A DNA stretch of 64,000 bases from the NCBI GenBank assembly GCA_964467655.1, contig CAYXSN010000005.1:16920-80919 (forward strand), written 5' to 3'. Shown piece after piece: positions 375-60,124 of the stretch; within the stretch, counting starts at the first letter, position 1, and every line of letters starts with the position of its first letter. Position numbers and translations under genes: made by a program. The notes under the pieces were generated by a model. The model saw only the letters and a list, made by a program, of their open reading frames with translations. It was not told the DNA's origin and did no database searches. Source of the stretch: an uncultured Candidatus Saccharimonadales bacterium (lineage in GTDB: Bacteria; Patescibacteriota; Saccharimonadia; UBA4664).

Positions 375-491
375 CGCCTGCAATAAGCCATTGGCAGTAA
401 AGCAGCTTTTGAGAGCAACCTGTATAATCAGTACTGTAAAAACGCCATAATTCTCCACGATAAATCAGGTAAAGAAAAATATTACAACCCC

Positions 492-2770: not shown

Positions 2771-2855
2771 TGCATTATACTAAACGCTATGTGGTTCTGG
2801 TTAGCTATCCTGTCAATGGCCGCGCTGGGGATGAATTAGTTCAAACTTGCTCTCA

Positions 2856-3332: not shown

Positions 3333-3376
3333 AACGAAACTTCTCCTCTAATATTTCTACTCCAAAGCAAATTAGC

Positions 3377-4036: not shown

Positions 4037-4099
4037 ACAACTAGTATACGCCAGCGTCGTAAGGCTAACGAACATGAGCAAAAGCATGCTCTTGCATTC

Positions 4100-4122
4100 A
4101 ACTATACACTAAGTGTATAGTT
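4100..4122. promoter_or_regulatory. Perfect 11-1-11 inverted repeat AACTATACACT-A-AGTGTATAGTT immediately upstream of padR (likely PadR operator)
   Basis: Exact palindrome read from sequence, 8 nt upstream of PadR start, in divergent intergenic region. Confidence 0.45.
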
Positions 4123-4129
4123 TGGCGTA

Positions 4130-4663
4130 ATGGAAGCACAATACACGATCCTCGGAATTCTCGATACCGGCCCAAACTACGGCTACGCCCTGAAGAAAAT
4201 ACATGACCAGCTATTTGGAGCTGGTCGCAAACTGGCCTACGGGCAGATCTATGCCACACTGTCACGCCTGCTTCGCGACGGCAAGGTGAAACCGTCGGCA
4301 GACCGAGAAGAAAGCGGTGGTCCCGACCGGGTCAAGTATGAAATCACGCCCAAAGGTCACACCGATTTTGTCACCTGGCTCGAAACACCAGAAGCTCCAA
4401 CGCCCCATTTGCAAGCAACACTCTATATCAAAACCGTCTTAGCTATCATCCGTGATGGTGAGGCCGCCGCCTATCTGGAGGCGCAACGCCGGACCCACCT
4501 AGCCCGTATGCGCAGCCTCACGGCGCAGCGCCAAACCGTACCGCTCGCTGAACGGTTGCTCATTGACCATGCCCTCTACCACCTGGAAGCAGATTTACGC
4601 TGGATCGACATAACCACCAACCGCTTAACTCAACTCAAGGAGGAATTATGCCAAAACCGGTAA
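4130..4663 (+). CDS. PadR family transcriptional regulator
   Basis: N-terminal winged-HTH YTILGILDTGPNYGYALKK...YGQIYATLSRL typical PadR. Confidence 0.75.
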   Translation: MEAQYTILGILDTGPNYGYALKKIHDQLFGAGRKLAYGQIYATLSRLLRDGKVKPSADREESGGPDRVKYEITPKGHTDFVTWLETPEAPTPHLQATLYIKTVLAIIRDGEAAAYLEAQRRTHLARMRSLTAQRQTVPLAERLLIDHALYHLEADLRWIDITTNRLTQLKEELCQNR

Positions 4664-5325
4664 TAATTGAGGCTAGAAATGTCAAAAAAGCATTTGGCAC
4701 TACCCATGCGCTGGGCGGCATTGACCTCTCGGTGGCAGCCGGCGAAGTGCTGGCCATTATGGGGCCAAGTGGTAGCGGCAAGTCAACACTCCTGCACAGC
4801 CTGGCGGCCATTACGGCCATTGACGAAGGAGAGATATACCTAAACAATCTGCGCATCGACACCCTCAGTGACGAAAAGCGCAGCGTTCTGAGGCGCACAA
4901 CCTTTGGCTTCGTCTTCCAGTTTAGCCAGCTCGTGCCGGAATTAACCGCCGAAGACAATGTCGCGCTGCCGCTGTTACTCAATGGCGTGAACCGGGAGCA
5001 GGCCTATGCCACCGCAAACCACTGGATGAACAATGTTGGGCTCAAAGGCAAAGCCGCCCGCCTATCCGGCGAACTCTCAGGCGGCGAGGCACAACGAACC
5101 GCTATCGCCCGGGCCATGATTATCAAGCCCACGGTCATCTTCGCCGACGAACCAACCGGATCGCTCGATAGCCTAAACAGCGAACACATTATGGATTTGT
5201 TTGTGCAAACCGCCAAAGATCATGGAACAACCGTTATCCTTGTAACCCATGAGCCCATGATCGCCGCCTATGCCGATCGGGAAGTAACCGTACGCGACGG
5301 GCAAATTGTGAGGTCATCACGATGA
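4648..5325 (+). CDS. ABC transporter ATP-binding protein (MacB/LolD-type)
   Basis: Walker A GPSGSGKST, signature LSGGEAQR, Walker [13 protein letters not shown]; AGGAGG RBS. Confidence 0.85.
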   Translation: MPKPVIIEARNVKKAFGTTHALGGIDLSVAAGEVLAIMGPSGSGKSTLLHSLAAITAIDEGEIYLNNLRIDTLSDEKRSVLRRTTFGFVFQFSQLVPELTAEDNVALPLLLNGVNREQAYATANHWMNNVGLKGKAARLSGELSGGEAQRTAIARAMIIKPTVIFADEPTGSLDSLNSEHIMDLFVQTAKDHGTTVILVTHEPMIAAYADREVTVRDGQIVRSSR

Positions 5326-7562
5326 GCGTTGCCTGGCTCGTATTTGCCCGGTCATTTCGGCAATCCTGGAAACGCTTTGCGTTACTGGCAGCCGCTATCT
5401 CGCTTGGGGTCGCCATGGTTCTGGTATTTCTGGCCGCAATGCATGGCCTCCAGGCCCGCAATGCCCATCAAACATGGCGTTCGCAGTTGTTTGCCGCCAT
5501 CCAACAGCAGCAAGCGCCCATACATGGCATCGACCCGCTCATCGCCGCCACCTGGGTGCCTGGTAACCTTAACCAGTGGCAAAACCAGACCATCTGGATA
5601 ACATCACTCTATGCCACCGGCAGCACGAGCCCGCACGTACCAGATATTCCGACACCCCAGCCGGGCGAATACTACGTTTCGCCTGCCTTAGATAAGCTGA
5701 TGCACGACCATCCAGAGGCCAGTTTGGGCGCGCGTTTTGGCACGCGACAATTGGGCGTCCTGCCCGAAAAACTAGCCACTTCGCCGGACTCGCTCGACGT
5801 CATTCGGGGCATGTCAAAAACCGAAGTCGAGTCGGGAGCCATTGGGAGGGAGGGCGGCCCAATCCCGCGTATCTACTCGCTACCATCAGCTGCCAATAGC
5901 ACGCCAGGCATTGGCTACGTCGGCATAATGAAATATGTGGTGATACTCGGAATTGTTATCTTACTCTTTCCAGTTTTTCTCTTCATATCGATTGCCGTTC
6001 AGCTTGGCAGCGCCCAACGCGAACAACGATACGCGGCACTCCGGCTCATTGGCGCCACCCGTGCCCAAATCCGCGGAATTATTGCCGTCGAGTCATTGAT
6101 TTCAGGCATGGTTGGCATTGTACTAGGTAGTGGTATCTATGCAGCCGCACGACTCTGGCTAACCGAATTCCGATTGAGCGATCTACGATTCTGGCCAGCG
6201 GACCTAACGGTCAGCCCCTACCAGTACCTGCTCGTTACCTGCGCCACCCTTGCCGTCACGGTCATAGCGAGCTGGTGGGGGATGCGACAGGTGAATGCCT
6301 CACCTCTGAGTGTCCGGCTGCGTAGCCGCCCCGATAAGCAGCCTCACTGGTGGCGCCTCATACCATTGGTTGTGGGATTTGGAACCTTTGCCACCGCCTA
6401 TGTTCTAACAAAAAAAGATTCTGCTTCAAATAGCACGCTGGAACTACTCATCGCTGCGATTCTCACTATTATGGTTGGTATCGTGCTCAGCGGAACCTGG
6501 CTAACCAGTGGCATAGCCCGGCTCGCAGCCCGCCTAACCAGGCATGCACCCGTATTGCTAGGCGCCAAACGTATCGCCACACGGCCGCGGCAAACATTCC
6601 GGGCGGTGAGCGGCGTAGTAGTCGCCCTGTTTGCCGGTAGCTTCTACCTAACGGCCGTCAGCGGCATGGCAAACTATACCGCAGCCAGCGTACAGCAAAA
6701 CGGCTACTCAAGATTGCACGACAACACCGCGTTCATCAGCTCGAGTACTCTGCCCGACAACTTCGCGGAAACCTTGCACCGCCAGAAGTACATCTCGGCC
6801 GTTACGCCGGTTCAGCAACTACGTTACTCAGTGAGCATCATGCCATGCCCTGTGCTGTCGACTTACACAACCCGCAGCTGCCCCGGCAACAACAACCAGC
6901 TATTCGCAGCCATAAACCTCGACGCTCCGGCTACCGAACAGCCCGGGCTTGGCGCCACGGTCCCGGAGGCCATTCAAAATGCCGGCATCGATGTTGGTGA
7001 CGGCAGCCAGGTGGTGTACGACAACAGTTACTTCGTAACTCTAACGTCGACCAGCGCCATTGAACAATTACGCAGCCTAGTACTGGCAAATAGCCAAGGC
7101 CTCATGGCTAACACGCAGCTCGTGGTGAGCGGAACATATGCTAAGCAGGCCATCATGCCGCCCGAGATCCGCGAGTTATCGGGCATAACGTATGTGGGAA
7201 TAATTGTTACGATGCTCATAGCTATTGGCAGCTTCCTGGTATCAACTATTGGCGGCTTGCTTGAACGTCAGCGTTCCTTATTCACGCTGCGGCTCAGCGG
7301 TATGACGATCAAACAATTACGGCAGATGGTTATCATTGAAGCACTCGTGCCCCTGGTTCTAACGTCGGTTCTGTCTGCTGCCATCGGCGTGGCGGTCGGC
7401 TATATGTTTATGAACATGGTGTCAAAAAGCCTCGACGCCGTTATAACGCCCCTCTATATCTGGGTGGTAGCTGGTTCGCTCGTAGCTGCGACACTCGCGA
7501 TATACAGCTTATTGCCAATCCTCAAGCGGCTAACAGATCTTGAGTCAAACCGTACCGAGTAA
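5322..7562 (+). CDS. ABC transporter permease, FtsX/MacB-like with large extracytoplasmic domain
   Basis: 4-nt overlap with ATPase; N-terminal TM, large soluble domain, C-terminal FtsX-like 4-TM bundle. Confidence 0.75.
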   Translation: MSVAWLVFARSFRQSWKRFALLAAAISLGVAMVLVFLAAMHGLQARNAHQTWRSQLFAAIQQQQAPIHGIDPLIAATWVPGNLNQWQNQTIWITSLYATGSTSPHVPDIPTPQPGEYYVSPALDKLMHDHPEASLGARFGTRQLGVLPEKLATSPDSLDVIRGMSKTEVESGAIGREGGPIPRIYSLPSAANSTPGIGYVGIMKYVVILGIVILLFPVFLFISIAVQLGSAQREQRYAALRLIGATRAQIRGIIAVESLISGMVGIVLGSGIYAAARLWLTEFRLSDLRFWPADLTVSPYQYLLVTCATLAVTVIASWWGMRQVNASPLSVRLRSRPDKQPHWWRLIPLVVGFGTFATAYVLTKKDSASNSTLELLIAAILTIMVGIVLSGTWLTSGIARLAARLTRHAPVLLGAKRIATRPRQTFRAVSGVVVALFAGSFYLTAVSGMANYTAASVQQNGYSRLHDNTAFISSSTLPDNFAETLHRQKYISAVTPVQQLRYSVSIMPCPVLSTYTTRSCPGNNNQLFAAINLDAPATEQPGLGATVPEAIQNAGIDVGDGSQVVYDNSYFVTLTSTSAIEQLRSLVLANSQGLMANTQLVVSGTYAKQAIMPPEIRELSGITYVGIIVTMLIAIGSFLVSTIGGLLERQRSLFTLRLSGMTIKQLRQMVIIEALVPLVLTSVLSAAIGVAVGYMFMNMVSKSLDAVITPLYIWVVAGSLVAATLAIYSLLPILKRLTDLESNRTE

Positions 7563-7780
7563 TCGATTTTCAACTTGCAAGTTCCCTCCATGCCGCAGTA
7601 GCTTCTGGAATACTGCCCAAAGCCTGGTACCAACTATCCGCCTACCATGGTAGTTTAGGATACAAGCTAACCCGCAAAGTCAGAGACTAATCCATTATTA
7701 GCCCAAAAATTTATGAATAGTACCAAAGTATGTAGGTTCACTGTCGTATACCATGACCAGGTAACGATAAGGAGTAAACT

Positions 7781-8005
7781 ATGGCACACACCGAAGACGA
7801 CACCGACATCACCGATATGGAAATGCCCGAGCAAGGAGACCAGTTCTACGAAAGCCTTGATAACATGGGCATCGACCAGCTCAAGGACAAGGCCACAGAA
7901 CTAGGAGTCACCGACACAACGGGCATGGGGAAGGCCGAGCTCATCAACGCAATTGAAGAGCTAACTCCAGCCAACGGCCGTTCACCCGATATTCCGAGTA
8001 TGTAA
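7781..8005 (+). CDS. Small acidic protein with Rho-N/SAP-like helix-hairpin motif
   Basis: GIDQLKDKATELGVTDTTGMGKAELINAIEE resembles Rho termination factor N-terminal domain. Confidence 0.4.
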   Translation: MAHTEDDTDITDMEMPEQGDQFYESLDNMGIDQLKDKATELGVTDTTGMGKAELINAIEELTPANGRSPDIPSM

Positions 8006-8028
8006 AGACTGCTGCCTTAGCCAGCACA

Positions 8029-8060
8029 CTCAGGCCCCGCTTTCAGGCGGGGCCTGAGTG
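8029..8060 (+). terminator. Perfect 13-bp GC-rich stem-loop downstream of the small acidic gene
   Basis: actcaggccccgc-tttcag-gcggggcctgagt; no clear T tract. Confidence 0.4.
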
Positions 8061-8100
8061 ACTATAATAACTACAATTCATCACGAAAGAGGAAGCGCCC

Positions 8101-8562
8101 ATGGCTCAACACATCACCCCCAATCTCTGGTTTGACGGCAATGCCGAAGAAGCCGTCAACTATTACGTTTCGGTTTTTCCCAATAACCGCATCAACGCCA
8201 CGCACTATTACCCCAAAACCGCCGAAGAGGGGCTGGGCGATTTCCAAAAAGATCTGGCCGGCCAAGTACTCACCATCGATTTTACCCTCAACGGCCTGAA
8301 TTTTGTGGCCATCAATGCCGGACCCGACTTTAAATTCAACGAAGCCGTTTCCTTTAGCATTGCCTGCAAAGACCAGGCTGAGATCGACTATTACTGGGAA
8401 AAGCTATCAAAGGTCCCCGAGTCGGAGCAATGTGGCTGGTGCAAAGACCAATATGGCTTGAGTTGGCAGGTAGTACCAGCGAATATGGACAAGCTCATGG
8501 ATAAACCAACTGCTTTTGCCAATCTTATGGAGATGCACAAAATCGTGATTGCCGACCTGTAG
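8101..8562 (+). CDS. VOC/PhnB-like protein (3-demethylubiquinone-9 3-methyltransferase-like fold)
   Basis: ITPNLWFDGNAEEAVNYY N-terminus typical of PhnB-like family. Confidence 0.6.
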   Translation: MAQHITPNLWFDGNAEEAVNYYVSVFPNNRINATHYYPKTAEEGLGDFQKDLAGQVLTIDFTLNGLNFVAINAGPDFKFNEAVSFSIACKDQAEIDYYWEKLSKVPESEQCGWCKDQYGLSWQVVPANMDKLMDKPTAFANLMEMHKIVIADL

Positions 8563-8623
8563 GCCAACCTATAATTGTTACGCTTTTTGTGGTATGCTAT
8601 GTCCAACAAGCTAAAAAACACAT

Positions 8624-44607: not shown

Positions 44608-45531
44608 ATGCAAGACGCCACTACCGCCGCCGTTCGCGCGACCATCGAGCCCAGCGTTGCAGCCTACCTGTTCGGCAGCACCGGAGCCCTGGGGGTTGCT
44701 CTGACGGCCGCGTCGCGATCACTTCACATCCTGGCATCCACCGGGCAGAAGCTGGGCGACTTGCCATATTCAGACATGTCCCACCAGCTCCAGCTCGTGC
44801 GTTCCAGCGGCCTGCCATGCGTATGGGTCCCGGCACAGGGCTATGAGCTGGACGCCGACGAGCGCGACGCACGGTACCAGATGGACAGCCGGACACGATC
44901 TCCCAAGACGCCCGATCCGGCCGATCGAGCAGTCAGTGGCGGTCGCTCATACGCGAACACGTATCCGTTCTGGCTGCCCATCGCCGGGCAACCGGCCATC
45001 TTGGTCAGGAAGGACGATCTGGCTTATTGGAACTGGCCTCTGTATCTGGGCCTCAATGACCTCCCCGTCGGCCTGTTCGGCTTCAGCGTCAACGTGGCGC
45101 TCCAGACCGATACCGGCAATTGCGAGGTCGACTGCAACCAGATCGCCCAGGTCCTGGCCGCCATCGGCCTCGGCGACTACACCGGCGATCAGCTGGCCGC
45201 CCACATCGCTAGTGACGTCAACGACCTGCCGCCAGATTTCCGGCTCAGCGACCAGCACAGCTCTGCACGCGTTCACCTGAACGCTTGGGACGGCACTCGC
45301 CGTCCGCTCTGGGCGCGCGACATCAACAATAACCTCGTGCGCAACGGCTCGGTGCTGGTGCAACCAGCTGGTGCCACGGAGGAGTGGCGGCTGCCGCGCT
45401 TCTTGCGCTTCACGGTGAGTCGAACGCAAGACTCGTTCGGCTGGCCGCACGGCATCATCTACGAGCCCGAGGAGCGGGCCAGTCTGTACGCCGTCGCTGA
45501 CAGGATCGCAGCAGCATTCAACGCCAGCTGA
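44608..45531 (+). CDS. Hypothetical protein encoded in a ~65% GC segment (probable horizontally acquired gene)
   Basis: 307-aa ORF with strongly GC-biased third codon positions; local GC well above the ~50% window average; spurious long ORFs on other frames typical of high-GC DNA. Confidence 0.5.
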   Translation: MQDATTAAVRATIEPSVAAYLFGSTGALGVALTAASRSLHILASTGQKLGDLPYSDMSHQLQLVRSSGLPCVWVPAQGYELDADERDARYQMDSRTRSPKTPDPADRAVSGGRSYANTYPFWLPIAGQPAILVRKDDLAYWNWPLYLGLNDLPVGLFGFSVNVALQTDTGNCEVDCNQIAQVLAAIGLGDYTGDQLAAHIASDVNDLPPDFRLSDQHSSARVHLNAWDGTRRPLWARDINNNLVRNGSVLVQPAGATEEWRLPRFLRFTVSRTQDSFGWPHGIIYEPEERASLYAVADRIAAAFNAS

Positions 45532-45633: not shown

Positions 45634-45888
45634 CTACCGATAAACTTCCCGGCGATTGCCAATCTTAATAATTTCGACCACTAGTTGCTCATCTGTAATT
45701 GAGTATATAACCCGATAGTCGCCAATCCTGATCCGCCACGCTTCCACTCCGATCATTTTCTTCACACCATGAGGCCTAGGATCATGCGCTAGGGAATCAA
45801 TCAATTCCGAGACCTGCTTTCGAGCAGCAATAGGCAACTTGCGTAACTCCTTAGTGGCACTAGTCCGAAATATTACCGAATAAACCAT
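45634..45888 (-). CDS. relE: RelE/ParE family toxin
   Basis: 84 aa; ...IRIGDYRVIYSITDEQLVVEIIKIGNRREVYR C-terminus typical of RelE/ParE; 3-nt gap to upstream antitoxin. Confidence 0.7.
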   Translation of the reverse strand: MVYSVIFRTSATKELRKLPIAARKQVSELIDSLAHDPRPHGVKKMIGVEAWRIRIGDYRVIYSITDEQLVVEIIKIGNRREVYR

Positions 45889-45891
45889 CCG

Positions 45892-46146
45892 CTAAAGCAG
45901 CCCGTCTCGCACTAAATCGGCCTTGACTTTGTCCCACGCAAGCAACGGCTCAGCCTTGCGCTCCTCTACAGTCGCTGCATCCTCGGCATCTTCTAGAAGT
46001 TCAGCAAGTTGATCATTAATCAGCTCCGAGATGGATTTATTTTGCTCAACCGCTTCGTGTTGCAAATATTTTTTGACGTAAGGATTTAAATAAACAGTTG
46101 TTCGCTCTGTGAGGGTAGCCATAGTGCTCTCCTTAATTGATTTCAT
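45892..46146 (-). CDS. Antitoxin (ribbon-helix-helix/CopG-like) of RelE/ParE module
   Basis: 84 aa, acidic C-terminus, immediately upstream of relE on same strand. Confidence 0.55.
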   Translation of the reverse strand: MKSIKESTMATLTERTTVYLNPYVKKYLQHEAVEQNKSISELINDQLAELLEDAEDAATVEERKAEPLLAWDKVKADLVRDGLL

Positions 46147-48684: not shown

Positions 48685-49017
48685 CTAGTCCTCAAACCAA
48701 TAGTGGTGCATCTGCCCCATGAACTCTTTTGTTATAGGAAACCCCGAAGCATCACCAATAACCGAATCAATTTCGCATGAGGGGCATAGCGCCGTTTTAC
48801 CATTATCAACCCAATCATCAATTTCATCCGGCGTAAAAATCTTGAGACAGTAAAAGCACCCGCACACCTTACTCGCACCAAGTTCAACACGGTGCTGCGA
48901 AGAATGTTCATGCGCTTTTACGATTTCCGGCGGCATTGATGCTTTGGCTCGCTCTAAAGCCGCAACAACCTCAGTCATTTCATCTTTTGGCTTGCCTTTA
49001 GGTCCAAATGGTCTCAT
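48685..49017 (-). CDS. Small Cys-rich (zinc-ribbon-like) protein
   Basis: CGCFYC...CPSC cysteine pairs, 110 aa. Confidence 0.4.
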   Translation of the reverse strand: MRPFGPKGKPKDEMTEVVAALERAKASMPPEIVKAHEHSSQHRVELGASKVCGCFYCLKIFTPDEIDDWVDNGKTALCPSCEIDSVIGDASGFPITKEFMGQMHHYWFED

Positions 49018-49875: not shown

Positions 49876-50487
49876 CTAGTTGGTTGTTGGTTCGCTCTCG
49901 GGCTTATCTAATGAGCTGAGAAGTTTGATGGTGGTGTATCTTTTTGGGGTTCCTGCCGCAACAAGTAATGTTAACCCGAGCCAAATAATTGCCAGTATCC
50001 ATCCGCCAACCGGGTCGAACCCGACATCAAATTTGGGGTTTCTAACGAATGCAGCAATTAATACAAGCAGTACCAGCGATATAACGACATTTCGCACGGC
50101 TTTAAACAGATAAACTCTTGGCTCTATATATTTTGGCGCCTCATCCCGGTAGACGTAAGCATCAAGCATCGTTTGATCGTAGTTTCTGTTCTTCAGATAT
50201 TCCTTAACAGCGAGATACCTTACTGATTGTTGCTTCATTCGCCCAACTGCCGAAAGAAATTCTGTATGAATATCATTTTGGTATCCGGCCAACCTAACGG
50301 CTACCTCATGAGATACCTCAAAGCGTTTTTCAAAATCTTTAGCCGTTAGCACTACCGCATGCTCAGATGACTTCGAAATTGGTCCGGGGGTTTCGTCACC
50401 TATATAAATCTCAGATGCATCCGAAAAGCCTATGTAAATTTCGCAGTAGACCTCAGCCGTCAAATCGATTGCGGTAAGCTTCTTCAT
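49876..50487 (-). CDS. Hypothetical protein with two C-terminal TM helices
   Basis: Start at internal ATG 50487 preceded by GGAGAG RBS; C-terminal hydrophobic helices. Confidence 0.4.
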   Translation of the reverse strand: MKKLTAIDLTAEVYCEIYIGFSDASEIYIGDETPGPISKSSEHAVVLTAKDFEKRFEVSHEVAVRLAGYQNDIHTEFLSAVGRMKQQSVRYLAVKEYLKNRNYDQTMLDAYVYRDEAPKYIEPRVYLFKAVRNVVISLVLLVLIAAFVRNPKFDVGFDPVGGWILAIIWLGLTLLVAAGTPKRYTTIKLLSSLDKPESEPTTN

Positions 50488-50533: not shown

Positions 50534-50893
50534 CTAGAAGACATCGTAAGGAGAAAGTATTACTCCGCCATCGCTATCGAGAACCTGCCATTTTTCCTTC
50601 TTCCGGAACAAAGTACGCTCAAGTTTAACCTTGCCTTCCAGGATTGATGCCAGACCCTTGAGCATCACCTGTTTGGGTTCGTCCTGATATATACAATTCT
50701 TATACTCGATATGGATAAAATCCCAATCTCCTTTTGGCAAATGAACGACGCTGACTTTTGCATCAAATTTATCATCGTGAATTACGACATCGCCAAAAAC
50801 CCTATCATTTGAGGAATGCTCGTTATATCTGTACTCGACGCCGCGATCCGATAACAACTGTTTTAATTCTTCGGGCATGTTATTTTCTTTCAT
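50534..50893 (-). CDS. Immunity-like small protein, paralog C of Rhs-associated array
   Basis: C-terminal LEGKVKLERTLFRKKEKWQVLDSDGG aligns with paralogs at 50890..51291 and 51909..52289. Confidence 0.45.
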   Translation of the reverse strand: MKENNMPEELKQLLSDRGVEYRYNEHSSNDRVFGDVVIHDDKFDAKVSVVHLPKGDWDFIHIEYKNCIYQDEPKQVMLKGLASILEGKVKLERTLFRKKEKWQVLDSDGGVILSPYDVF

Positions 50894-51291
50894 CGAGGCG
50901 AGAATTGCTCTAGCGCAGCGGCGGGCACTTTTCGACTTTCAGGATTTATGCGCTGCCAAACATCGAGTTCTTTTCCCGACTTATCGGTAAAAATATATTG
51001 TTTTTTCCTTGTGAGCGTCAGCTTCACGACATATTGTTTTTCGAGAAGCGCGCGGATTATCAACTCATAAATTTCATCAGGGTTATCTGGAAATTCATTT
51101 CCCCCAAATCCGATAGAGATAATCGACCAAGCGTCATTCTTTTTAAGCAGGTATATGTAGATTACGCGATGTTCATTTTTATTGTCTCTAATCGTTACCG
51201 TCAAACTCGTACTATCTACGCCTACGGATGGCTGCTCAATAGAGACGTCGTATTTGTCCTTAATTTGATCTAGTAATTGCGTTATGGTCAC
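50890..51291 (-). CDS. Immunity-like small protein, paralog B of Rhs-associated array
   Basis: GTG start at 51291 with GGAGGG RBS; C-terminal LEKQYVVKLTLTRKKQYIFTDKSGKE aligns with paralogs; upstream extension in track ORF rejected. Confidence 0.45.
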   Translation of the reverse strand: MTITQLLDQIKDKYDVSIEQPSVGVDSTSLTVTIRDNKNEHRVIYIYLLKKNDAWSIISIGFGGNEFPDNPDEIYELIIRALLEKQYVVKLTLTRKKQYIFTDKSGKELDVWQRINPESRKVPAAALEQFSPR

Positions 51292-51334
51292 TTTATTTTC
51301 CCTCCTACTAGGAAATCGAACGGTAAGGGCACAC

Positions 51335-51793
51335 TTAATAAAGCCTGTTTGCCCAGGACTGATTGAAGACGGCCTCCGTGGTCTCAGTTCTGCCCACATC
51401 CTCACCGATTTCTATTTCGGTCTGTTTATCCCATTGCTTTGGTAGCGAGCGAGTTTGGTTACCATCCGCCTTAAACACTGCCGCCCTAAGAATGTTGCCA
51501 TCAAGCTCTTCTGTTATCAGCTTCGCTGCTTTAGGATTACCCGTAACATATTCGTAGTACTTTAAGCCGCTATCAACCCTTTTTCTAAGCATTATCAGCT
51601 CAGTGGCAAAAAGAACTACTTCAAGAACTGTCCCCGCCGCATCGGTCGCCTTATATTCGGATTTTGGCTCAATGAAATGTTCCAGACCTCCTTCAAGATC
51701 GGCTAGGTCTTTATATGTTTCGGTTTTGCCGTCATGCCCGATGGTTATCGGGAGTTGGGGTTGGTAGTTTTGAGGGTTAACTATGATATGCAT
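51335..51793 (-). CDS. Small hypothetical protein in immunity gene array (distinct family)
   Basis: ATG with GGAGG RBS 7 nt upstream; 152 aa. Confidence 0.4.
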   Translation of the reverse strand: MHIIVNPQNYQPQLPITIGHDGKTETYKDLADLEGGLEHFIEPKSEYKATDAAGTVLEVVLFATELIMLRKRVDSGLKYYEYVTGNPKAAKLITEELDGNILRAAVFKADGNQTRSLPKQWDKQTEIEIGEDVGRTETTEAVFNQSWANRLY

Positions 51794-51908
51794 TTTAGAA
51801 CCTCCATGGTGACTGTAATCTCATATTCGGCCTACATTTGCATAATGTTCCGACCAATCTTACCCATGTATGGGGTCAACTCAAGTCACGCCCCACCAAG
51901 AAAGAGAC

Positions 51909-52289
51909 CTAATCTCGAGGCCAATATTCTTTTCCAGACTGGCCCGTCACAACATATTTTTTTTGACCAAAGCCAAACAATGTTTTTTTCTCGGCTATTT
52001 TCCCCGATAATATGCCATCGAGTGCTTCAAATAAGCTTTCTGGGCTTTCGTCGGTGTATTCTCCGTTGAGATATTTCACCGCAATCAATTGCGCGCCTAG
52101 GGAATTATTTTTATTCTCGACGAGTTCCACGACTACGACATTGTTCGAGTTACCTGGGCGAATCTCGATCTCCATAAAGCTTAGGTTGGGACTTTCTTTG
52201 CTCGCCGTTAAAGGCCGAGTTACCTCACATTGCCCTGAATATTTTTGAGCGAGTTCTTCAACCCTATTAACTGCATTTAATTTAGCCAT
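51909..52289 (-). CDS. Putative cognate immunity protein of Rhs toxin (paralog A)
   Basis: Starts 2-5 nt after Rhs stop with GGAGGAAGG RBS embedded in Rhs 3' end; C-terminal LSGKIAEKKTLFGFGQKKYVVTGQSGKE motif shared with paralogs B and C. Confidence 0.5.
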   Translation of the reverse strand: MAKLNAVNRVEELAQKYSGQCEVTRPLTASKESPNLSFMEIEIRPGNSNNVVVVELVENKNNSLGAQLIAVKYLNGEYTDESPESLFEALDGILSGKIAEKKTLFGFGQKKYVVTGQSGKEYWPRD

Positions 52290-52291
52290 TT

Positions 52292-55200
52292 CTACCACCT
52301 TCCTCCTACGATGAAGTCCCAGTGACGATCTTTACCGCGCCACTTCCAACCAGCACGGAAAGTCTGGCGGTTACCCGGAAAGCGCGACCACCCTAACTTG
52401 AAACTTCCATAATTATTTAGTTTACCGGCACCACTGCCCAGAGTTGCGTGTCCAAAGAGCTTACTATTTACCCCAATGACCGGCATTCGTGACTGTACAC
52501 GCGCCAACTTAGTACTAACCGCTTCAACTCCCTTAAGAAACATCCCCGCCCTACCGGCATTTACCGCCTTTGCTGCAACCTTGGTCAACAAGCCCGCGCC
52601 CACCAAACCACCAGCAGCAACCAACGCCTCCCCGTACCGTCCCTGAGCGACATTCCCTGCGACAGCAACCGCAGAGCATGCTATGCCGATCGGACCAGGT
52701 ATAAACGAGCCTATTGTAGCAACTGTGGTAACAACTTTTGCCGCAGCCTTAAACTTGTCCCAGAATCCAGCATTCCCATCTAAGTCGAAACCGTTTACTG
52801 GATCAGTCGGGTACACATAGCCGTTCTCGTTTCCACCCTCCTGCGGATCGACCTGGAGGAACCTCCCAATCTTCGCCAGGTACACCCGTGCCCCCATCTC
52901 AGTCGGAGCAAGAGCAAAGGCTGTTTCGGTGTCCTTTTCGTGCTGACCGACCCAGCCATAGGTAGAGCCGGTTGCGGTGTTGTTGGGGGAGCTAGCGACC
53001 GGGTTACCGAAGGGATCGTACATGAAGGTACCCGTTTGCGTACCATTGGCGTCGGTGGTTGCCATAGTGTCGCCATGAACATTGACGAGGGAGAAGACGC
53101 GGTTAGCCGGAGCTGTTTGGTTCGGTCGTACAGTCAGAAGAACTCCACCGGGCAGTTGCTCATACTTCTCGACGATGGCATTGCTTGCATCGAGGAGTAG
53201 ATCGGGAGAGTCGCCAGCGCCCGTAAACCCATACTTGTTGGTAGTCGTAGAGCCATTGACCAGCACCCGCTGGATAGTCCTACCCTGGACATCGCGAGTG
53301 TAGGTAGCAGACTTGCTACCTACAGTAATCGAGCTGTTGCGATCACTTGAATCGTACGCAAACTGAGTGACAGGCGTGGTGCCAATTTGAGTGGTGTTGC
53401 CATGCGCATCGTAGACGGGGCTCGTGACGGAGGCATCGGAGCTACTTACGAGGCGGTCAGCGTAATCGTAACAGTAGGTCGTCGTGACCCCATTTACCGT
53501 TTGGCTGGTTCGGTTGGAGTTTTTGTTGGCATTGGCATTGTAGGTACCCGTGCAACTAGTAGGGGAGCCAAAACCGTAGCTGTAGGTATTTGAGCCAATG
53601 GTCGCAGAGGTTAGGCGGCCTGCTTTGTCGTAAGTGTAGCTCTTGCTTTGACCAAGCTCGGTGCCAGAGATGATTTGGCCGGATTGGCTGCGAGTAACAG
53701 CGTCGGTAACATGCGTCGTACCATTACCGAGCGTGTAATCCATGCCCACCGTCCGGCCGAGAGAGTCGCGGGAGATGGCCAGAGCTTGCGAGCCAGCGGT
53801 AGGGTAGGTGACGCCTGACAGGCGACCGTAGCCATCGTAGCTCGGAACCGCCTGGGTAACCCCGTCGAGGGTTTGGGTGGTTAAACGATTGTAACTATCG
53901 TATGTGAACCCTTCTGCGCCGAGCGGACCGGAACGCGAGCTGAGGCGGCCGAGAGAGTCGTAGCTCGTTGTGGTGGTCTGGTTGTTGGCGTCGGTGTAGC
54001 TGACTGTACGGCCAAGGAGGTCGCTAGTGCTGGTAATGGTGCCATTAGCATCGGCCGTGCTCACAACGAAGGGATTACCACCAACGGACCAGTTGTTAGT
54101 GACGGTGCGGGCCGGAGCGCTACCAAAGGCCGGGATGGCAACTTGTGTGACTCGGCCGCGAGAGTCGTAGGTGGTGCAAGTCCAGGAATCACTATTGTAG
54201 CGAGTAGCCACCACCCGACCAGCTGCGTCGTAAACTGTTTCAGTGGTACGGCTAATTTGAGCGCCAGCTCCATCTGGGTCGGCTTCAGCCTTGAGCTTCA
54301 GCATACCTGCCTGGCTCACGGCCGCTCCGCCCACGCAGGGGTTAGCCCGGGTTTCGGTGGCACCGTAATAGGCGTATTGCGTACTCGGGTTACCTGCATC
54401 GTTGCCCGGCAGCACCTTAGTGAGCTGCCGCAAGTAGCTACCGCTAGTGCCTTGGGCTTCGTAGGTACTTGAGCTAGTGTAGTTGAGACCAGCAGAATCG
54501 AGGGTATTGGACTGTGCGAGGCCGAGCTCGGGATTAGCGCCGTAATTGGTAGTCGATTGCGTATCACCAACCGCAGCGCTTGAGTCAAAGGTCTTTTGGC
54601 TCGTCGCTAGTCCGTAACGGGGCGTCAAGATCGAACCAAGCACGCTCGTCTCACTCCCACCCGGCGCGGTCTTGAACAGTTCCAGATGACCGTCGGCGTC
54701 GAGCGTGGAGCCGACGGCTTTATTGTAATAGTCGAGCCGGACGCGGTGCCAGGAGTTGGCGGTCGGATTCGTGAACACGCCAACGGTATGGTCGCGGTAA
54801 ACACCGTCAGCCCAATCATCAGCCACAAGAATATCGTCAATCCAGAGGCGGGCACCATCGTCGGACTTAACTTTGAAAGTGTGGTCGCCGGTTTCGGCCA
54901 GCTTAATTGAACCGCTCAGCCGCAAGCCCCAACCGTAAGTGGACTGGCTCGGCGTAATGGGCTGCGTCGAGCCCCAATTCTTCACCACATCGCCGTTTGT
55001 GGGGCCAACGCCAGTTTGGTGGCTCCTGGGGGCGCCGGTGAGGACCTTGGTGCTCACGCCGGTGCCATTGGTAGCAATTGCGACGTCGTAGTAGGTGGCG
55101 GCTAGGCCGGTAATGCCCTCGTCATAGCCAGTTTGCGTATGGGGAGTTGAGCTGACATTAGCCGTCAGCGGCTTGCGGTCGGTCCCATACCAACTGCTCG

Positions 55201-58200
55201 GAGCGGGGCCATATTGATCCGTCGGCCGGTCGTCCTCGTCATAGATAGTAGTGGACTTGAGTCCAGCCGCATCCGTCGAAGAAAGCACCATATCCTTGCG
55301 AGGTGCCCCCGTAGTTGGGTCAACATCCCACTCGGTCTTGGTGGTGAGTCCAGATAACCAGCTCGACGGCGTACCAAAGGTTGTTCCGGTTGAAATACCA
55401 GCCATAATCTGGTCACCACCCGCCCCGGCGGTGCCGTTATTGAACGAGCCGAAGTCGGCCTTACCGTCAGCGTTTGCATCACCCGTAAACGGCTTCATGC
55501 CAAACCAGTTCCATCCCGCTAGGCTCTGAACATAGGTGGTGCTGTTAGCCAACGGTGAGCTCGCTCCATACAGGGTATGAAGGTCAGTGCCGCTCGGTGT
55601 ACTGTGGACCAATGCTACGTCATCATAAGCATCGCCATTAAAGTTGCCCGCAGCCAGGTTTACCTTCGACCAAACCCAGCCATTTGCAGCAGGGAGGCTG
55701 CGGATGTAGGTCGAGGTATTAGCGAATGGTGTCGTACCACCATTGAGCATATGAACATCAATGCCGTCACTGGCTACCTGATGGAAGATAGCCACGTCAG
55801 AGTAGCCATCGGCGTTAAACTTCCCGCCCGCCAGTTTCATCTTGGACCAGGCCCAACCGTTTGAAGCCGGTAAGTTTACTACCCAGGTAGAGCTATTGCC
55901 GAAAGGCGTCGAGCCACCGTAGAGGGCGTGTATCCCGACACCATCATCAGAGAGCTGATGGAAGATAGTAAGGTCAGCTTTACCATCACCGTTAATATCA
56001 CCAGGCACCAGCTTGAACTTGGACCAGGCCCAACCGCTAGAAGAGGGCATATTGCGTAGTAAGGTGGGGCTGTTATTGGAGGGTGAGCTGGTTCCATATA
56101 GTGCGTAGACATCGGCCCCGTCTCCGGTGGCCTGTCGAACCAAAGCTAGATCAGCTTTCCCATCGCCGTTAAAGTCACCCACAAGGGGCTTGATGCCATC
56201 CCAGCTCCAGCCCGGCAGGTTAGCCCAACGCACCAGCGGTTGGTAACCGCTACCCGTAGATGCTGCAAACATAACCTCCGAGCCACTCGCACCGCTGGCA
56301 CCGTTGTTGAGCAAGGCAACATCGGCTTTACCGTCGCCGTTAAAGTCACCCGTGATGGGGATCGTGCCGTTCCAGTTGAAGCCGTACTGCTCAGTATCGG
56401 TCAGCGTGCGATACGTTGTATCGTACGTGACTTTACGACCTCCGGTTACGGCAGTATCCGGGTGCATGATGGTGTAGCCAGCATCGCTACCAGCAGCCGA
56501 GTAATAGCTGTAGCTATGAGACTGATGAGCGGCTCCAGCAGTAGCAGCGGGCATGGTTATGCTTGAAACGCGGCCAATGGCGTCATAGGAAATGGTCGTA
56601 AGCTCGTTTCCATCCTGAGTACGAACGCCAGCCGAGATAGCATCATTCGCCAACGAATCCCGCATCGATGTGATGCGGCCGAGCGAATCAAAGCCATAGT
56701 CGCTAATCTCACTCCCGGGGTGGATTAGCCGAGCAAGCCGCCCCGTAGACGAGTAGGCAAACTGCGTAACCTGGCTGTCTGACGTAGTAACCGCACAAAT
56801 CATGCCAGCTGGTACGGCCGAGAAGCCCGAGGGAACCGAAGGACATCCGGCGTCGCCACTGTAGTAAACCTTAGCCCAACGACTTGAATCTACCCCATCG
56901 GTAACCTGGGTGAGATGGGCAGGGAGACCACTGTAACTGTACTGCAAAGCCGCCGGATTGCGATCGTCAGCCGGGCTCGTGCTCAGCTTGAGCGTGCCGT
57001 CAGTGTCGAAGACATAGGTACGGCCATCACTATCCTGGAGAGTGATGGTGCCGTCACCATTGCGGACCATGTGGCCGGTCTCGTTGACCGGAGGCGTGTA
57101 GCCCGAGCCGGTCCATTTATACTCATGCGTTTCACCGGTCGAGTCACGCAGAACCACACTATTTACGCCAATGGTCGCAAAATCATAACCAAGATCGCCA
57201 TCGGCATCAATGCTTAAGCCCCAGCCATCTGGCAGCACTTGAGCCTGCGGCAGCAGCCAGTCCGACGGCACCGGTAGGGTCTTGTCGATACCTGGCCCAT
57301 CAACATAGAGTCCAAGACTGGCATTGCCAGTCACCTCACGGTATTCAACCGTGATCGACTTAGTCTGTCCGGCAGTCATGGTGACGCCAGTTGAACCCGG
57401 CGCAGTCGTTGGCCAAGCGGGTGAGGTGGTGGAAGTAGACCAGTTATCGAGCTGGGTTACGCCATCCACGATAATCTTGATACCATCATCGGCCTGACCG
57501 CCAAACTTATAGGTGCCGTCTTGGGGTGCCTTAAAGTACCCCGACCAACGCACTACAAAGTTGTCTGCTGGCCCGTTTGGTACCGGCGAACCAGCACCCC
57601 AATCCATCCCGAGCGTCGTGTCAGTACGAGCCAAGAAGCGGCTACTGACATCCGACTCGCTCGAAGGGAATGAGCTTCCGGTGTAATAACGCCCGATGAG
57701 ACCGTGCGGCGTAGCCACTGGCCGCACCCCGGTCTGAAGCCATTCAGTTGGCACAACTTGGTCAGAGAAGCCAACGCCGCGAACCCATAAACTGTTATAA
57801 GCTGCTCCAGTCGCCTCGGTGTAATCAACCGTAATGGGCACGGCCTGACCAGCCGTCAGGGCAACTCCCGTTCCCCAATGTTGGTTGGTGTAGCAACCTC
57901 CGCTGGTCGTATCCAGGACTACCTGACTATTGAGGGTAACTTTAACCGTATCATCACCAACACAGCCCATCGTGTAGGTGGTGGTATAGGGAGCCACAAA
58001 GTAGCCGCTCCAGCGAGCGCTAAAGTTATCTGTCGTTACCATGCCGGTGTACGGAGAGCCGGTATTCCAGTTGTAGTCGACGTTGGGCTCGACTCGGGTC
58101 AAAACGGGGTTGCCGGAAAAGGTGGTGTTGTTCCAGTACTGTGCTACCAGACCCTGGCGAGACCGTTGCGGCGAGTTGTAGTCAAGACCGATGCCCAAGC

Positions 58201-60124
58201 TACCGCCAAGTGCCGCGATTGAATGACTCTTGGCTCCAGTCGTTAAATTACCCGTAGCCAGGTCGACACTAACCGGGCCCACCGTATCAAACGCTTGGGT
58301 CGCATCCTTGCCGTTGCGCATATCAACTTTAAACGAGTATGTAGGGCTATAAACCGAAGCAGATTTGAGATAGGTGCCCTGGTAGCTATCCCACACCAAA
58401 GACTGCCAATAATAGGTTGTCCCGTCCTGCAAGACGTTGTCCGGCACGGTCCACTGTGATATCGGGGTAAGCCCCGAATCGGCAACGACACCGCTCACGC
58501 TTTGAATCGTGTTATATGGGTTCGAACCAGGAACGGTTTTGCTCGTTCCAATGATGTACCGATACTGCAATGGCCCGGGTCCATCTGGGTCGGTCGAAGC
58601 CGTAGTTTTTAGAAGTGGCTGGTTGGTCGTGGTTATGCCTTGGTCGGCAGGGGAACCGGCCGCAATCAGGCTTTGTGACGGAAGCGATTCGTAGTCAAAC
58701 CAGACGAGCGTACGGTCGTAGGCCAGTAGTTTGTAGGAGTTCGTGTTAGCCTCTTCGCCGTGGACAATCATCCAAGCGCTGTAATCGCCAGCCGCGGCCG
58801 CTCTCCGGTACATATCCGACACATCAATGTCGCCTGTCGAGCCAACCGTCCCACTCTGCTCACCATAAGCATAGTCGATACAGCCATACCCGAAGCATCC
58901 CGCGTGGTCGAGGTAAACTGAGCGGTTATCGTAGGTGCCGTAGTAATGAACCCCGTCGGGAGTGGGCATCTCGACGTGGAAGATGGCTTGGACGATATAT
59001 TTGCCCGCCACCGACGAATATGGGGAATAGAACATGAACCGCCAGATATTGCCACTAACGTTACCCACACTGTTGCCACAGCCCTGGCCCGGGTTGCAGA
59101 CATAGCCGTCCGACTTGTAGTTAACGTAGTTGCTCCCGCTATAGCTCCAAAACGACGGATCAATCACCAGAGGGAATTTATCGGTGGTCTGCTTTTGCAT
59201 CCAGTCCGAATCAAGCGTAACGGTGAGGCGTGAACCATTTACCGATTGCCGGACAATTGGTGCGGCCCCCAAGATGCCCTCAGTAGCAGTGGCGATAGTC
59301 GGAACCGGAAGCTTAATGTTGCTCAAAGCCCCGTCGAGCTTAAAACCGCCCGGATTGTCGGTATCAGGCAAGAGGTTTGCGCCCGAGAAATCAAACGAAA
59401 AAGTGCTAGCGGCGGCCCGGCTCTTTATGACGATGCTCTCTTTAACCTCTGAACCCGACAACTGGTACATCAGATCAATGCCCGGCCAGACATTACGGTA
59501 CTTCACGATCTGGTTAGGGGCGGTACCGGTGACTTCTGGCTGGACTTGGCTTGCGCCGAGGGGTTTGAAAGTGACTGTCTGTCCGCCTTGATTTAGCTCA
59601 ACTCCTTGTGTAGGCGAAACTGCGCCAAAGCGAGCCTGCCAGGAGTTAGCTTTGGTCTTCCATTTACCATCCGTGGCGTCTTGAGCCAGAGACACATCGA
59701 CGTCTTTCCATTGGCCATTTTCTCGATAGCTCGTAGCTACTAGGCTACGGCGAAGGCTTTTGCTGCCGTCGGCGTTGAGGAAAACGGTGTCATTTTCAGT
59801 CCGACCTTCATTGAGAGCTTGCACGTGCCGTCTATCGCTTGGATGACCATCTTGCTGTGCTTTGCGGTCAGCATCCAGCTGCTGTTGGACAGAGATTGGG
59901 AGTGCGGAGGCTTTGCCAGTAGGGAGGGTGGCGTCGGCGGCCGGGGCGCTTGCGGGGGTGGTCTCAGCTAAAGCATGCGGTGTCCGAGCCTGATGCTTAT
60001 TGTAGGCGTCGATGAGCAATCCCACGCCAACTGAACTCAAAGTAATTGCGCCAACCATAAATATATTGAACGCAGAATAATGGAGCTTACGATCAATTAC
60101 TTTTTTGACACGCTGATACCACAT
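52292..60124 (-). CDS. Giant Rhs/YD-repeat polymorphic toxin (2610 aa): N-terminal TM anchor, PA14 domains, FG-GAP/VCBS repeats, YD repeats, RHS core, variable C-terminal Gly/Ala-rich toxin domain
   Basis: Two PA14-like segments (ARWSGYF... / VRWSGYFKAP...), six GDFNGDGKAD-type FG-GAP repeats, many YD repeats (YxYDxxGR), RHS core ending YVYPTDPVNGFDLDGN, then ~150-aa divergent tail. Confidence 0.85.
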   Translation of the reverse strand: MWYQRVKKVIDRKLHYSAFNIFMVGAITLSSVGVGLLIDAYNKHQARTPHALAETTPASAPAADATLPTGKASALPISVQQQLDADRKAQQDGHPSDRRHVQALNEGRTENDTVFLNADGSKSLRRSLVATSYRENGQWKDVDVSLAQDATDGKWKTKANSWQARFGAVSPTQGVELNQGGQTVTFKPLGASQVQPEVTGTAPNQIVKYRNVWPGIDLMYQLSGSEVKESIVIKSRAAASTFSFDFSGANLLPDTDNPGGFKLDGALSNIKLPVPTIATATEGILGAAPIVRQSVNGSRLTVTLDSDWMQKQTTDKFPLVIDPSFWSYSGSNYVNYKSDGYVCNPGQGCGNSVGNVSGNIWRFMFYSPYSSVAGKYIVQAIFHVEMPTPDGVHYYGTYDNRSVYLDHAGCFGYGCIDYAYGEQSGTVGSTGDIDVSDMYRRAAAAGDYSAWMIVHGEEANTNSYKLLAYDRTLVWFDYESLPSQSLIAAGSPADQGITTTNQPLLKTTASTDPDGPGPLQYRYIIGTSKTVPGSNPYNTIQSVSGVVADSGLTPISQWTVPDNVLQDGTTYYWQSLVWDSYQGTYLKSASVYSPTYSFKVDMRNGKDATQAFDTVGPVSVDLATGNLTTGAKSHSIAALGGSLGIGLDYNSPQRSRQGLVAQYWNNTTFSGNPVLTRVEPNVDYNWNTGSPYTGMVTTDNFSARWSGYFVAPYTTTYTMGCVGDDTVKVTLNSQVVLDTTSGGCYTNQHWGTGVALTAGQAVPITVDYTEATGAAYNSLWVRGVGFSDQVVPTEWLQTGVRPVATPHGLIGRYYTGSSFPSSESDVSSRFLARTDTTLGMDWGAGSPVPNGPADNFVVRWSGYFKAPQDGTYKFGGQADDGIKIIVDGVTQLDNWSTSTTSPAWPTTAPGSTGVTMTAGQTKSITVEYREVTGNASLGLYVDGPGIDKTLPVPSDWLLPQAQVLPDGWGLSIDADGDLGYDFATIGVNSVVLRDSTGETHEYKWTGSGYTPPVNETGHMVRNGDGTITLQDSDGRTYVFDTDGTLKLSTSPADDRNPAALQYSYSGLPAHLTQVTDGVDSSRWAKVYYSGDAGCPSVPSGFSAVPAGMICAVTTSDSQVTQFAYSSTGRLARLIHPGSEISDYGFDSLGRITSMRDSLANDAISAGVRTQDGNELTTISYDAIGRVSSITMPAATAGAAHQSHSYSYYSAAGSDAGYTIMHPDTAVTGGRKVTYDTTYRTLTDTEQYGFNWNGTIPITGDFNGDGKADVALLNNGASGASGSEVMFAASTGSGYQPLVRWANLPGWSWDGIKPLVGDFNGDGKADLALVRQATGDGADVYALYGTSSPSNNSPTLLRNMPSSSGWAWSKFKLVPGDINGDGKADLTIFHQLSDDGVGIHALYGGSTPFGNSSTWVVNLPASNGWAWSKMKLAGGKFNADGYSDVAIFHQVASDGIDVHMLNGGTTPFANTSTYIRSLPAANGWVWSKVNLAAGNFNGDAYDDVALVHSTPSGTDLHTLYGASSPLANSTTYVQSLAGWNWFGMKPFTGDANADGKADFGSFNNGTAGAGGDQIMAGISTGTTFGTPSSWLSGLTTKTEWDVDPTTGAPRKDMVLSSTDAAGLKSTTIYDEDDRPTDQYGPAPSSWYGTDRKPLTANVSSTPHTQTGYDEGITGLAATYYDVAIATNGTGVSTKVLTGAPRSHQTGVGPTNGDVVKNWGSTQPITPSQSTYGWGLRLSGSIKLAETGDHTFKVKSDDGARLWIDDILVADDWADGVYRDHTVGVFTNPTANSWHRVRLDYYNKAVGSTLDADGHLELFKTAPGGSETSVLGSILTPRYGLATSQKTFDSSAAVGDTQSTTNYGANPELGLAQSNTLDSAGLNYTSSSTYEAQGTSGSYLRQLTKVLPGNDAGNPSTQYAYYGATETRANPCVGGAAVSQAGMLKLKAEADPDGAGAQISRTTETVYDAAGRVVATRYNSDSWTCTTYDSRGRVTQVAIPAFGSAPARTVTNNWSVGGNPFVVSTADANGTITSTSDLLGRTVSYTDANNQTTTTSYDSLGRLSSRSGPLGAEGFTYDSYNRLTTQTLDGVTQAVPSYDGYGRLSGVTYPTAGSQALAISRDSLGRTVGMDYTLGNGTTHVTDAVTRSQSGQIISGTELGQSKSYTYDKAGRLTSATIGSNTYSYGFGSPTSCTGTYNANANKNSNRTSQTVNGVTTTYCYDYADRLVSSSDASVTSPVYDAHGNTTQIGTTPVTQFAYDSSDRNSSITVGSKSATYTRDVQGRTIQRVLVNGSTTTNKYGFTGAGDSPDLLLDASNAIVEKYEQLPGGVLLTVRPNQTAPANRVFSLVNVHGDTMATTDANGTQTGTFMYDPFGNPVASSPNNTATGSTYGWVGQHEKDTETAFALAPTEMGARVYLAKIGRFLQVDPQEGGNENGYVYPTDPVNGFDLDGNAGFWDKFKAAAKVVTTVATIGSFIPGPIGIACSAVAVAGNVAQGRYGEALVAAGGLVGAGLLTKVAAKAVNAGRAGMFLKGVEAVSTKLARVQSRMPVIGVNSKLFGHATLGSGAGKLNNYGSFKLGWSRFPGNRQTFRAGWKWRGKDRHWDFIVGGRW

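Follow-up and report, generated by a model that had tools for sequence, protein, structure and literature searches.

WapA of Bacillus subtilis is an exported (Sec-type) YD/Rhs protein of the Gram-positive cell wall with a polymorphic C-terminal toxin, and its small cytoplasmic immunity protein, WapI, is encoded just downstream. The C-terminal domains of WapA proteins are tRNases. For the rhs genes of enterobacteria, a C-terminal displacement model is established (Jackson 2009, PMC2935791; Poole 2011, PMC3150448; Koskiniemi 2014, PMC3967940). The orphan immunity arrays of the T6SS (type VI secretion system) of Vibrio cholerae have been explained by sequential insertion of effector-immunity modules, which replaces the effector and keeps the immunity gene (Kirchberger 2017, PMC5361080). 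From a soil Saccharibacteria genome, a 2487-aa Rhs/PA14 toxin with an adjacent immunity gene has been mentioned in passing (PMC6031116). Here we analyzed a stretch of 64,000 nucleotides (the window) from an uncultured Candidatus Saccharimonadales bacterium (contig CAYXSN010000005.1 of assembly GCA_964467655.1, positions 16,920 to 80,919), which contains a very large rhs gene followed by a run of small genes. We are fairly confident, from the comparison of sequences, that this locus encodes a polymorphic toxin with a stack of immunity genes, one of them cognate to the resident toxin (g1) and two of them orphans left behind by C-terminal displacement (g3 and g4).

Organization of the rhs locus

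The rhs gene occupies positions 52292-60124 of the window on the minus strand and encodes a protein of 2610 aa. It is followed on the same strand by five smaller genes, the first of which, g1 (51909-52289, minus strand, 126 aa), is translationally coupled to it. The last codons of rhs read TTC ATC GTA GGA GGA AGG TGG TAG. The ATG of g1 (position 52289) is found 2 nt past this TAG, and the ribosome-binding site of g1, GGAGGAAGG, lies within the final rhs codons. An earlier note on this stretch, made from the letters alone, had placed the first gene 2-5 nt after the rhs stop and had seen its ribosome-binding site embedded in the last rhs codons. The junction sequence agrees on both counts and fixes the spacing at exactly 2 nt. 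The four small genes that the note had listed just downstream of the toxin gene are present as described, and the run extends to a fifth gene, g5, beyond the part that the note had covered.

The second gene, g2 (51335-51793, minus strand, 152 aa), has its own GGAGG site. For g3 (50890-51291, minus strand, 133 aa, from a clade with a C-terminal extension), we placed the start at a GTG codon (position 51291) behind an AGGAGGG site, replacing the start of the longer open reading frame (ORF) at 51405. The next gene, g4 (50534-50893, minus strand, 119 aa, from a clade with the motif YKNCIYQDEP), overlaps g3 in the sequence ATGA, so that the ATG of g4 sits on the stop codon of g3. The run closes with g5 (49876-50487, minus strand, 203 aa), after which the coding strand switches. 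The g5 protein has two transmembrane helices near its C-terminus. The gene calls for this locus in public assemblies, which are independent of ours, contain the same five downstream genes with the same sizes. The GC content is 54-60% in the body of the rhs gene as against 41-46% in the array. A scan for promoter-like and terminator-like sites gave no excess over chance, and there are no tRNA or rRNA genes in the 64-kb window.

A family of small proteins with three clades

The proteins encoded by g1, g3 and g4 are homologous. BLASTP comparisons gave an E-value of 3e-5 for g1 and g3 (26% identity over 90 aa), 2e-7 for g1 and g4 (33% over 52 aa), and 3e-6 for g3 and g4 (28% over 67 aa). The paralogous triplet that the earlier note had read from the sequence, and had made contingent on significant similarity in a formal alignment, is thus borne out. 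The homology spans most of each protein, with the C-terminal motif as the best-conserved part. The motif itself, which the note had given as L-x-GK...TLF, is shared only loosely: g3 deviates from it with LLEKQ...LTLTRKK. The one small ORF that the note had regarded as unrelated to the others is g2, and this assignment was confirmed. In a word-indexed search of 5.8 billion proteins, g2 matched only itself, and none of the other retrieved loci contained a homologue, so that it has to be considered an ORFan.

Relatives of the triplet were found in other genomes (loci and proteins retrieved from these are referred to by L and P numbers). When 1.84 billion representative sequences were searched exhaustively with HMMER, 22 further family proteins were identified with E-values of 1e-3 or lower, nearly all of them between 101 and 131 aa long. 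The relatives came from this search alone, and a word-indexed protein search that started from the family alignment recovered nothing beyond the three proteins of the window. The exceptions in size are a repeat protein, which is probably a spurious match, and a fusion protein of 259 aa (P0032), in which the family domain forms the C-terminus (residues 196-256) and the preceding part, about 190 aa long, is an unrelated domain.

The family proteins align end to end and fall into three clades, with exactly one of the three window paralogs in each. The match of g1 to P0017 scored 80 bits and that of g4 to P0014 97 bits, as compared to less than 40 bits for the matches of either protein to the other window paralogs. 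The margin was small for g3, which matched P0025 with 43.5 bits and g4 with 31.6 bits. Each window paralog is thus closer to proteins of other genomes than to its neighbors, which argues that the triplet is a collection of old, distinct alleles and not the product of recent local duplication.

An origin by tandem duplication would be an alternative. According to this explanation, g3 and g4 would be duplicates of g1 that arose in this genome, and they would provide either a higher dosage of immunity or the partners for a hetero-oligomeric immunity complex against the single resident toxin. The homology of the three genes, their common strand and short distances, and the translational coupling of g3 and g4 through ATGA are all in line with it. 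However, the paralogs are only 26-33% identical to each other and nearer to proteins from other genomes, an unrelated gene (g2) stands between g1 and g3, and a remnant of a toxin tail precedes g3 (see below). Moreover, for each of the three clades there are loci in other genomes in which one of its members is the only partner that a toxin tail has. We therefore consider tandem duplication very improbable, and the derivation of g3 and g4 from displaced toxin-immunity pairs remains our preferred explanation.

None of the proteins encoded by g1 to g4 had a match in profile searches against Pfam, NCBIfam, PADLOC, PHROGs, or the sequences of the PDB. An AF2 model of the g1 protein (pLDDT 92) predicts a soluble alpha+beta fold, and neither a signal peptide nor a transmembrane segment was seen in its sequence. 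Searches with the predicted fold of the immunity family did not return a convincing match.

Association of the family with one type of toxin tail

An alignment of Rhs C-termini showed a shared end of the core (MGARVY...DPVN.FDLDG), after which the proteins diverge. In the window protein, the C-terminal region of about 160 aa has two parts, a hydrophobic glycine-zipper module (see below) and a basic tail, which comprises the final 70 aa of the protein (ARVQSRMPVIGVNSKLFG...GWS...TFR...RHWDFIVGGRW; 52295-52504, minus strand). The tail has an isoelectric point of 12 and a net charge of +11, and it did not match any known family in Pfam, NCBIfam, PADLOC, PHROGs, or the PDB; Pfam recognized only the preceding module in the C-terminal region. 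Homologous tails were found in L014, L015, L093, L095, L096, L097, L100, and L106.

All recovered tails of this type are directly followed, or overlapped, by a member of the g1/g3/g4 family. In addition to the junction of rhs and g1 in the window, there are 10 such junctions, with all three clades represented. Members of the g1 clade follow the tail in L014, which contains a full Rhs protein with a C-terminal region 64% identical to that of the window (followed by P0017), in L096 (followed by P0019), and in L106, where a 2518-aa Rhs protein encoded on a 1.15-Mb contig precedes a family member of 125 aa. In L100, a truncated orphan tail (P0006) is followed by P0023, also of the g1 clade, and further along by a decayed tail stub of 35 codons (...GWSRFPGNRQTFRIGFKAYSKARHIDLLVGRRW and stop; 1497-1601) and the orphan P0031 (1606-1983), which belongs to a separate sub-branch of this clade. 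Partners from the g4 clade are P0013, behind a 2494-aa Rhs protein in L095, and P0014, behind an orphan tail ORF of 78 aa in L015, where the orphan is located 3' of an Rhs gene with a different tail and its own partner of 164 aa. The g3 clade is represented by P0028, behind a full Rhs tail in L093/L094, and by P0033, behind another such tail in L097/L098, where a second, distant family member (E-value 6e-6) comes next. A tight coupling to the toxin stop, like that in the window, was observed in L014, L093, L095, L096, L097, and L106.

The association follows the tail and not the remainder of the Rhs protein. In all 10 further junctions, the family members follow only the tail type GVNSK...HxDxxVGxxW. 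Where the same Rhs core and glycine-zipper module are combined with other tails, as in the main Rhs protein of L015, in L011, in L164, and in 76 loci obtained by a genome scan, the downstream genes are unrelated. The earlier note had held that its reading would suffer if homologues of the small genes routinely occurred away from toxin loci. Contrary to such an expectation, the 10 junctions all sit behind tails of the same type.

The genome scan with the C-terminal alignment identified 76 loci with the glycine-zipper module and none with a close copy of the tail. Weak matches to a model of the tail were seen among these loci in L038, L028, L040, L069, and L049 (E-values from 7e-8 to 1e-3), and a single, weak family member was found, in L066. 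A degenerate DNA pattern for IGVNSKxFG marked 63 loci, but L106 was the single genuine case, and an alignment of three tails matched 235 stretches in metagenome contigs, of which none was confirmed.

The strict co-occurrence with one tail type and the tight coupling to the 3' end of the toxin gene could also be expected if the small proteins were accessory factors, such as chaperones, stabilizers, or adaptors, that load or export the tail. The generic fold without an assigned relative would be compatible with such a role as well. The genes for adaptors and chaperones of Rhs and T6SS effectors, however, usually lie upstream of the toxin gene, and the copies that are kept without an intact toxin (g3, g4, the proteins in L066 and L099, and P0031 in L100) suit an immunity function and not a chaperone. 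In addition, the proteins of the g1 clade are only 23-36% identical to each other as compared to 55-74% for the corresponding tails. The small proteins thus diverge much faster than the tails, which is typical for immunity proteins. A role as accessory factors therefore appears very unlikely, and the most likely role of g1 is that of cognate immunity gene to the resident tail.

In L066, from a Candidatus Saccharibacteria metagenome-assembled genome (MAG; positions 1-8600), a long array follows the Rhs gene. It comprises three or more orphan C-terminal fragments of Rhs proteins, each trailed by small genes. Within this array, a protein of 251 aa combines a g3-like N-terminal half with an unknown C-terminal domain. 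In L097, an orphan fragment of an Rhs gene that encodes a nuclease domain (Tox-REase-7) and, after it, a gene for a 146-aa protein (1569-3378) are located directly behind the module of tail, g3-like gene, and second paralog. Small proteins with the C-terminal pattern ...EWQxW...WWW(H/N) are encoded in L015 (8425-8931), L066 (5931-6299 and 8298-8558), and L011 (979-1455); their recurrence in several Rhs-downstream arrays suggests that they may be another immunity-like family. Two small proteins of L011 were not counted as members of the g1/g3/g4 family, as an hhalign comparison gave no match for the one of 126 aa and a marginal match for the one of 123 aa (E-value 0.015, probability 3%).

A toxin-tail remnant upstream of g3

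The earlier note had suggested a check for orphan Rhs C-terminal fragments, and such a fragment is present within the array itself. Directly upstream of g3, about 31 codons of a toxin tail (DHGGRLQSVLGKQALLSVPLPFDFLVGGKIK and stop; 51288-51383, minus strand) have been retained, and the TGA stop codon of this remnant overlaps the GTG start codon of g3 in the sequence GTGA. Queries with three different tails in tblastn all converged on this site. The remnant ends in ...FDFLVGGKIK before its stop codon, and intact tails have similar ends where they meet their immunity genes (...HWDFIVGGRW and ...HFDFLVGGSWR). An alignment at the DNA level showed that the remnant and the tail share their 3' end.

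In a six-frame translation of the 64-kb window, the pattern [FWY]DF[ILV]VGG occurs only twice, at the end of the Rhs protein and in the remnant, and in 1.34 Mb of other loci it was found only at the ends of the tails in L014 and L015. The last codons of g2 overlap the upstream part of the remnant in another reading frame, suggesting that g2, or its insertion, truncated the old toxin. A toxin remnant was not detected in front of g2.

The C-terminal region of the Rhs protein

The Rhs protein begins with a hydrophobic helix, seen in the sequence, that may be a transmembrane segment or a signal anchor. Pfam identified three PA14 stretches (5.9e-54), FG-GAP repeats, and the RHS_repeat (1.1e-21). 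The match to the Rhs_assc_core model TIGR03696 (2.7e-11) stops about 160 aa short of the C-terminus. An AF2 model of the C-terminal region was unreliable (pLDDT 47) and was not used for a fold search.

The glycine-zipper module of the C-terminal region begins directly after ...DPVNGFDLDGN/A of the Rhs protein (N/AGFWDKFKAAAKVVTTVATIGSFIPGPIGIACSAVAVAGNVAQG; 52640-52774, minus strand, residues 2451-2495 approximately). It is amphipathic and contains the sequence ...KVVTTVATIGSFIPGPIGIACSAVAVAGNVAQG..., and it resembles the gamma peptide of nodavirus capsid proteins. Positions 312-344 of the 353 positions of the Pfam profile PF01829 (Peptidase_A6), which represent the gamma-peptide region of this nodavirus capsid profile, were matched by 7 of 11 C-terminal homologues, with a best E-value of 6e-6 and scores below the gathering score. 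When the PDB sequences were searched with a profile, the top matches were gamma peptides, from Black beetle virus and Flock House virus (2bbv_D and 3lob_D; E-values 0.13 and 0.16), and the Pariacoto virus gamma peptide ranked sixth. An alignment that starts from the residue after the cleavage site remains in register, with W-E-R-V-K...IPGPIG-V-A-A-S-G on one side and W-D-K-F-K...IPGPIG-I-A-C-S-A on the other; W-D-K-F-K...IPGPIG is the version of the Rhs module. According to the genome scan, the module is common to at least 299 Rhs C-termini, foremost from Candidatus Saccharibacteria MAGs and Actinomycetes, and many of these Rhs proteins share the module and differ in their extreme C-termini.

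The nodavirus gamma peptide (C-terminal region of PF01829; 2bbv_D, 3lob_D, 1f8v_D) is released to breach membranes, and it aligns with the sequence W-[ED]-x-[VF]-K...IPGPIG-[IV]-A-x-S that follows Asn-Ala in the Rhs protein. In contrast to the nodavirus protein, the Rhs protein lacks the rest of the capsid protein, and the match is short, with about 33 residues, and has marginal E-values (6e-6 in Pfam, 0.13 in the PDB search). In the literature that was searched, no paper was identified that ties gamma peptides to polymorphic toxins. By analogy, we infer that the module acts on membranes or in translocation, and these toxins could use it to cross membranes. It is possible, if rather doubtful, that the Rhs C-terminal regions of this lineage and of many Actinomycetes cross the target membrane by means of a module that is either homologous to the nodavirus gamma peptide or convergent with it, and that g1, g3 and g4 encode cytoplasmic antidotes to one family of basic cargo tails.

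As to the tail, the solubility of the immunity proteins and the retention of their orphan copies suggest that it acts in the cytoplasm of the target cell. The charge of +11 and the conserved N-S-K, R, and H-x-D positions lead us to guess that this activity may be directed against nucleic acids.

A different division of labor would follow if the toxin acted on the membrane through the gamma-like glycine-zipper module. In this case, g5 could be the real immunity factor, and g1, g3 and g4 would have some other role. The similarity of the module to a membrane-lytic peptide speaks for this scenario, together with the two transmembrane helices of g5 and its faint match to the RT-associated SLATT model of PADLOC (E-value 0.008). 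Moreover, the sole homologue of g5 that was found, a membrane protein of 211 aa (BLASTP E-value 2e-16), is encoded in L011/L012, where it comes as the second gene behind a divergent toxin tail. However, a g5-like gene is not present downstream in L014, L015, L093, L095, and L097, in which the tail and the family member are conserved (in L096, L100, and L106, the downstream sequence is too short to say). Furthermore, the gamma-like module is spread over many different tails, and the immunity family tracks the tail. This scenario is thus highly improbable. Because g5-like genes are missing from the five loci with tail and family member, we think that g5 may be left over from a further module, and that the g1/g3/g4 family most likely confers the immunity, in the cytoplasm.

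Genes beyond the array

The region between 44 and 50 kb of the window contains many genes that could not be annotated and looks like a variable island. Just beyond the array, a cysteine-rich protein of 110 aa (CGCFYC...CPSC) without a Pfam match is encoded on the minus strand (48685-49017). Further along, also on the minus strand (45634-46146), a toxin of the ParE family (8.5e-13) and a partner resembling a ribbon-helix-helix antitoxin form a type II toxin-antitoxin pair. An ORF of 307 aa on the plus strand (44608-45531) stands out by a GC content of 64% in surroundings of about 45-50%; it has neither a match in Pfam nor a homologue in the retrieved loci.

Discussion

The findings suggest a history in which the rhs gene would acquire new cassettes of tail and immunity gene at its 3' end by recombination, and older cassettes would be pushed downstream. 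The displaced toxin parts would then decay, and the stub of 31 codons in front of g3 would be what persists of one of them. The gene next to the toxin, g1, would encode a cytoplasmic protein that binds and neutralizes the resident Rhs tail, as its association with this tail indicates. The older genes g3 and g4 would have been kept, presumably since they protect against neighboring strains that still fire the corresponding tail variants. Relatives of g3 and g4 are indeed the partners of tails elsewhere, in L093 and L097 for the g3 clade and in L015 and L095 for the g4 clade. Most likely, g3 and g4 are thus orphan immunity genes that stem from C-terminal displacement and not local duplicates.

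Both central proposals of the earlier note are in agreement with these data. The distinction between a cognate immunity gene and orphan paralogs is backed by the significant paralogy, by the 10 of 10 further tail junctions, and by the presence of three clades. Past switching of C-terminal toxins, which the note had deduced from the paralogs, finds support in the tail remnant in front of g3 and in the greater similarity of the paralogs to proteins of other genomes.

Several observations weigh against this interpretation. No toxin remnant was seen in front of g4, and three family members are not located beside a toxin, namely those in L099 (with only 838 nt of upstream sequence), in L016 (on a contig of 1.1 kb), and in L066. 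A Mantel test for a correlation between the identities of tails and those of immunity proteins gave a weak, non-significant result (r=0.26, p=0.08; 8 pairs). In L100, a stub that closely resembles the window tail precedes P0031, a protein of a different sub-clade, so that the pairing of tail and immunity variants cannot be simple. Finally, a purely membrane-lytic toxin that acts from the outside would not be blocked by a cytosolic immunity protein.

The tail and clades of immunity proteins supply cognate and non-cognate pairs for experiments on specificity. The locus is also a clean, well-documented example from a lineage in which such warfare systems have barely been studied. If confirmed, the gamma-like module would be the more interesting result, as it hints at how toxins might cross the membrane of monoderm bacteria. 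Should the tentative proposal for this module be correct, the capsids of eukaryotic RNA viruses and bacterial contact-dependent toxins would share a device for membrane penetration, and the Saccharibacteria, as epibionts, and the actinobacteria that are their hosts would have exchanged this device.

The nearest relatives of the Rhs body and of its C-terminal region are from Candidatus Saccharibacteria/Saccharimonadales MAGs and from unclassified soil MAGs. We know of no sequence similarity between WapI and the immunity family of the window. In its layout, the locus resembles the enterobacterial rhs loci. In both cases, a large Rhs core is followed by a variable C-terminal toxin past the conserved end of the core, the immunity gene is coupled to the stop codon of the toxin gene, a stack of displaced toxin fragments and immunity genes lies downstream, and the GC content drops in the variable part. 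Unlike the enterobacterial proteins, this Rhs protein carries a membrane anchor at its N-terminus as well as PA14 and FG-GAP domains, and its host is probably Saccharibacteria-like. PAAR and VgrG domains were not detected in a Pfam scan of the Rhs protein and of part of the remaining window. Also in contrast to the enterobacterial loci, the orphan toxin has decayed to 31 codons and is thus not an orphan that could be expressed.

The similarity to the T6SS arrays of V. cholerae lies in the fact that the members of the array resemble cognate immunity genes of other strains. The difference is that the toxin is an Rhs protein and not part of an auxiliary T6SS cluster, and that a single immunity superfamily, which matches a single family of tails, comprises all the family members that were retained. 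As judged from our sequence searches, the toxin tail and the immunity proteins of about 125 aa are two previously undescribed families. The architecture, in which an Rhs toxin is accompanied by a cognate immunity gene and by orphans, is ordinary in comparison with the known systems, and the novelty of the locus is in its protein families.

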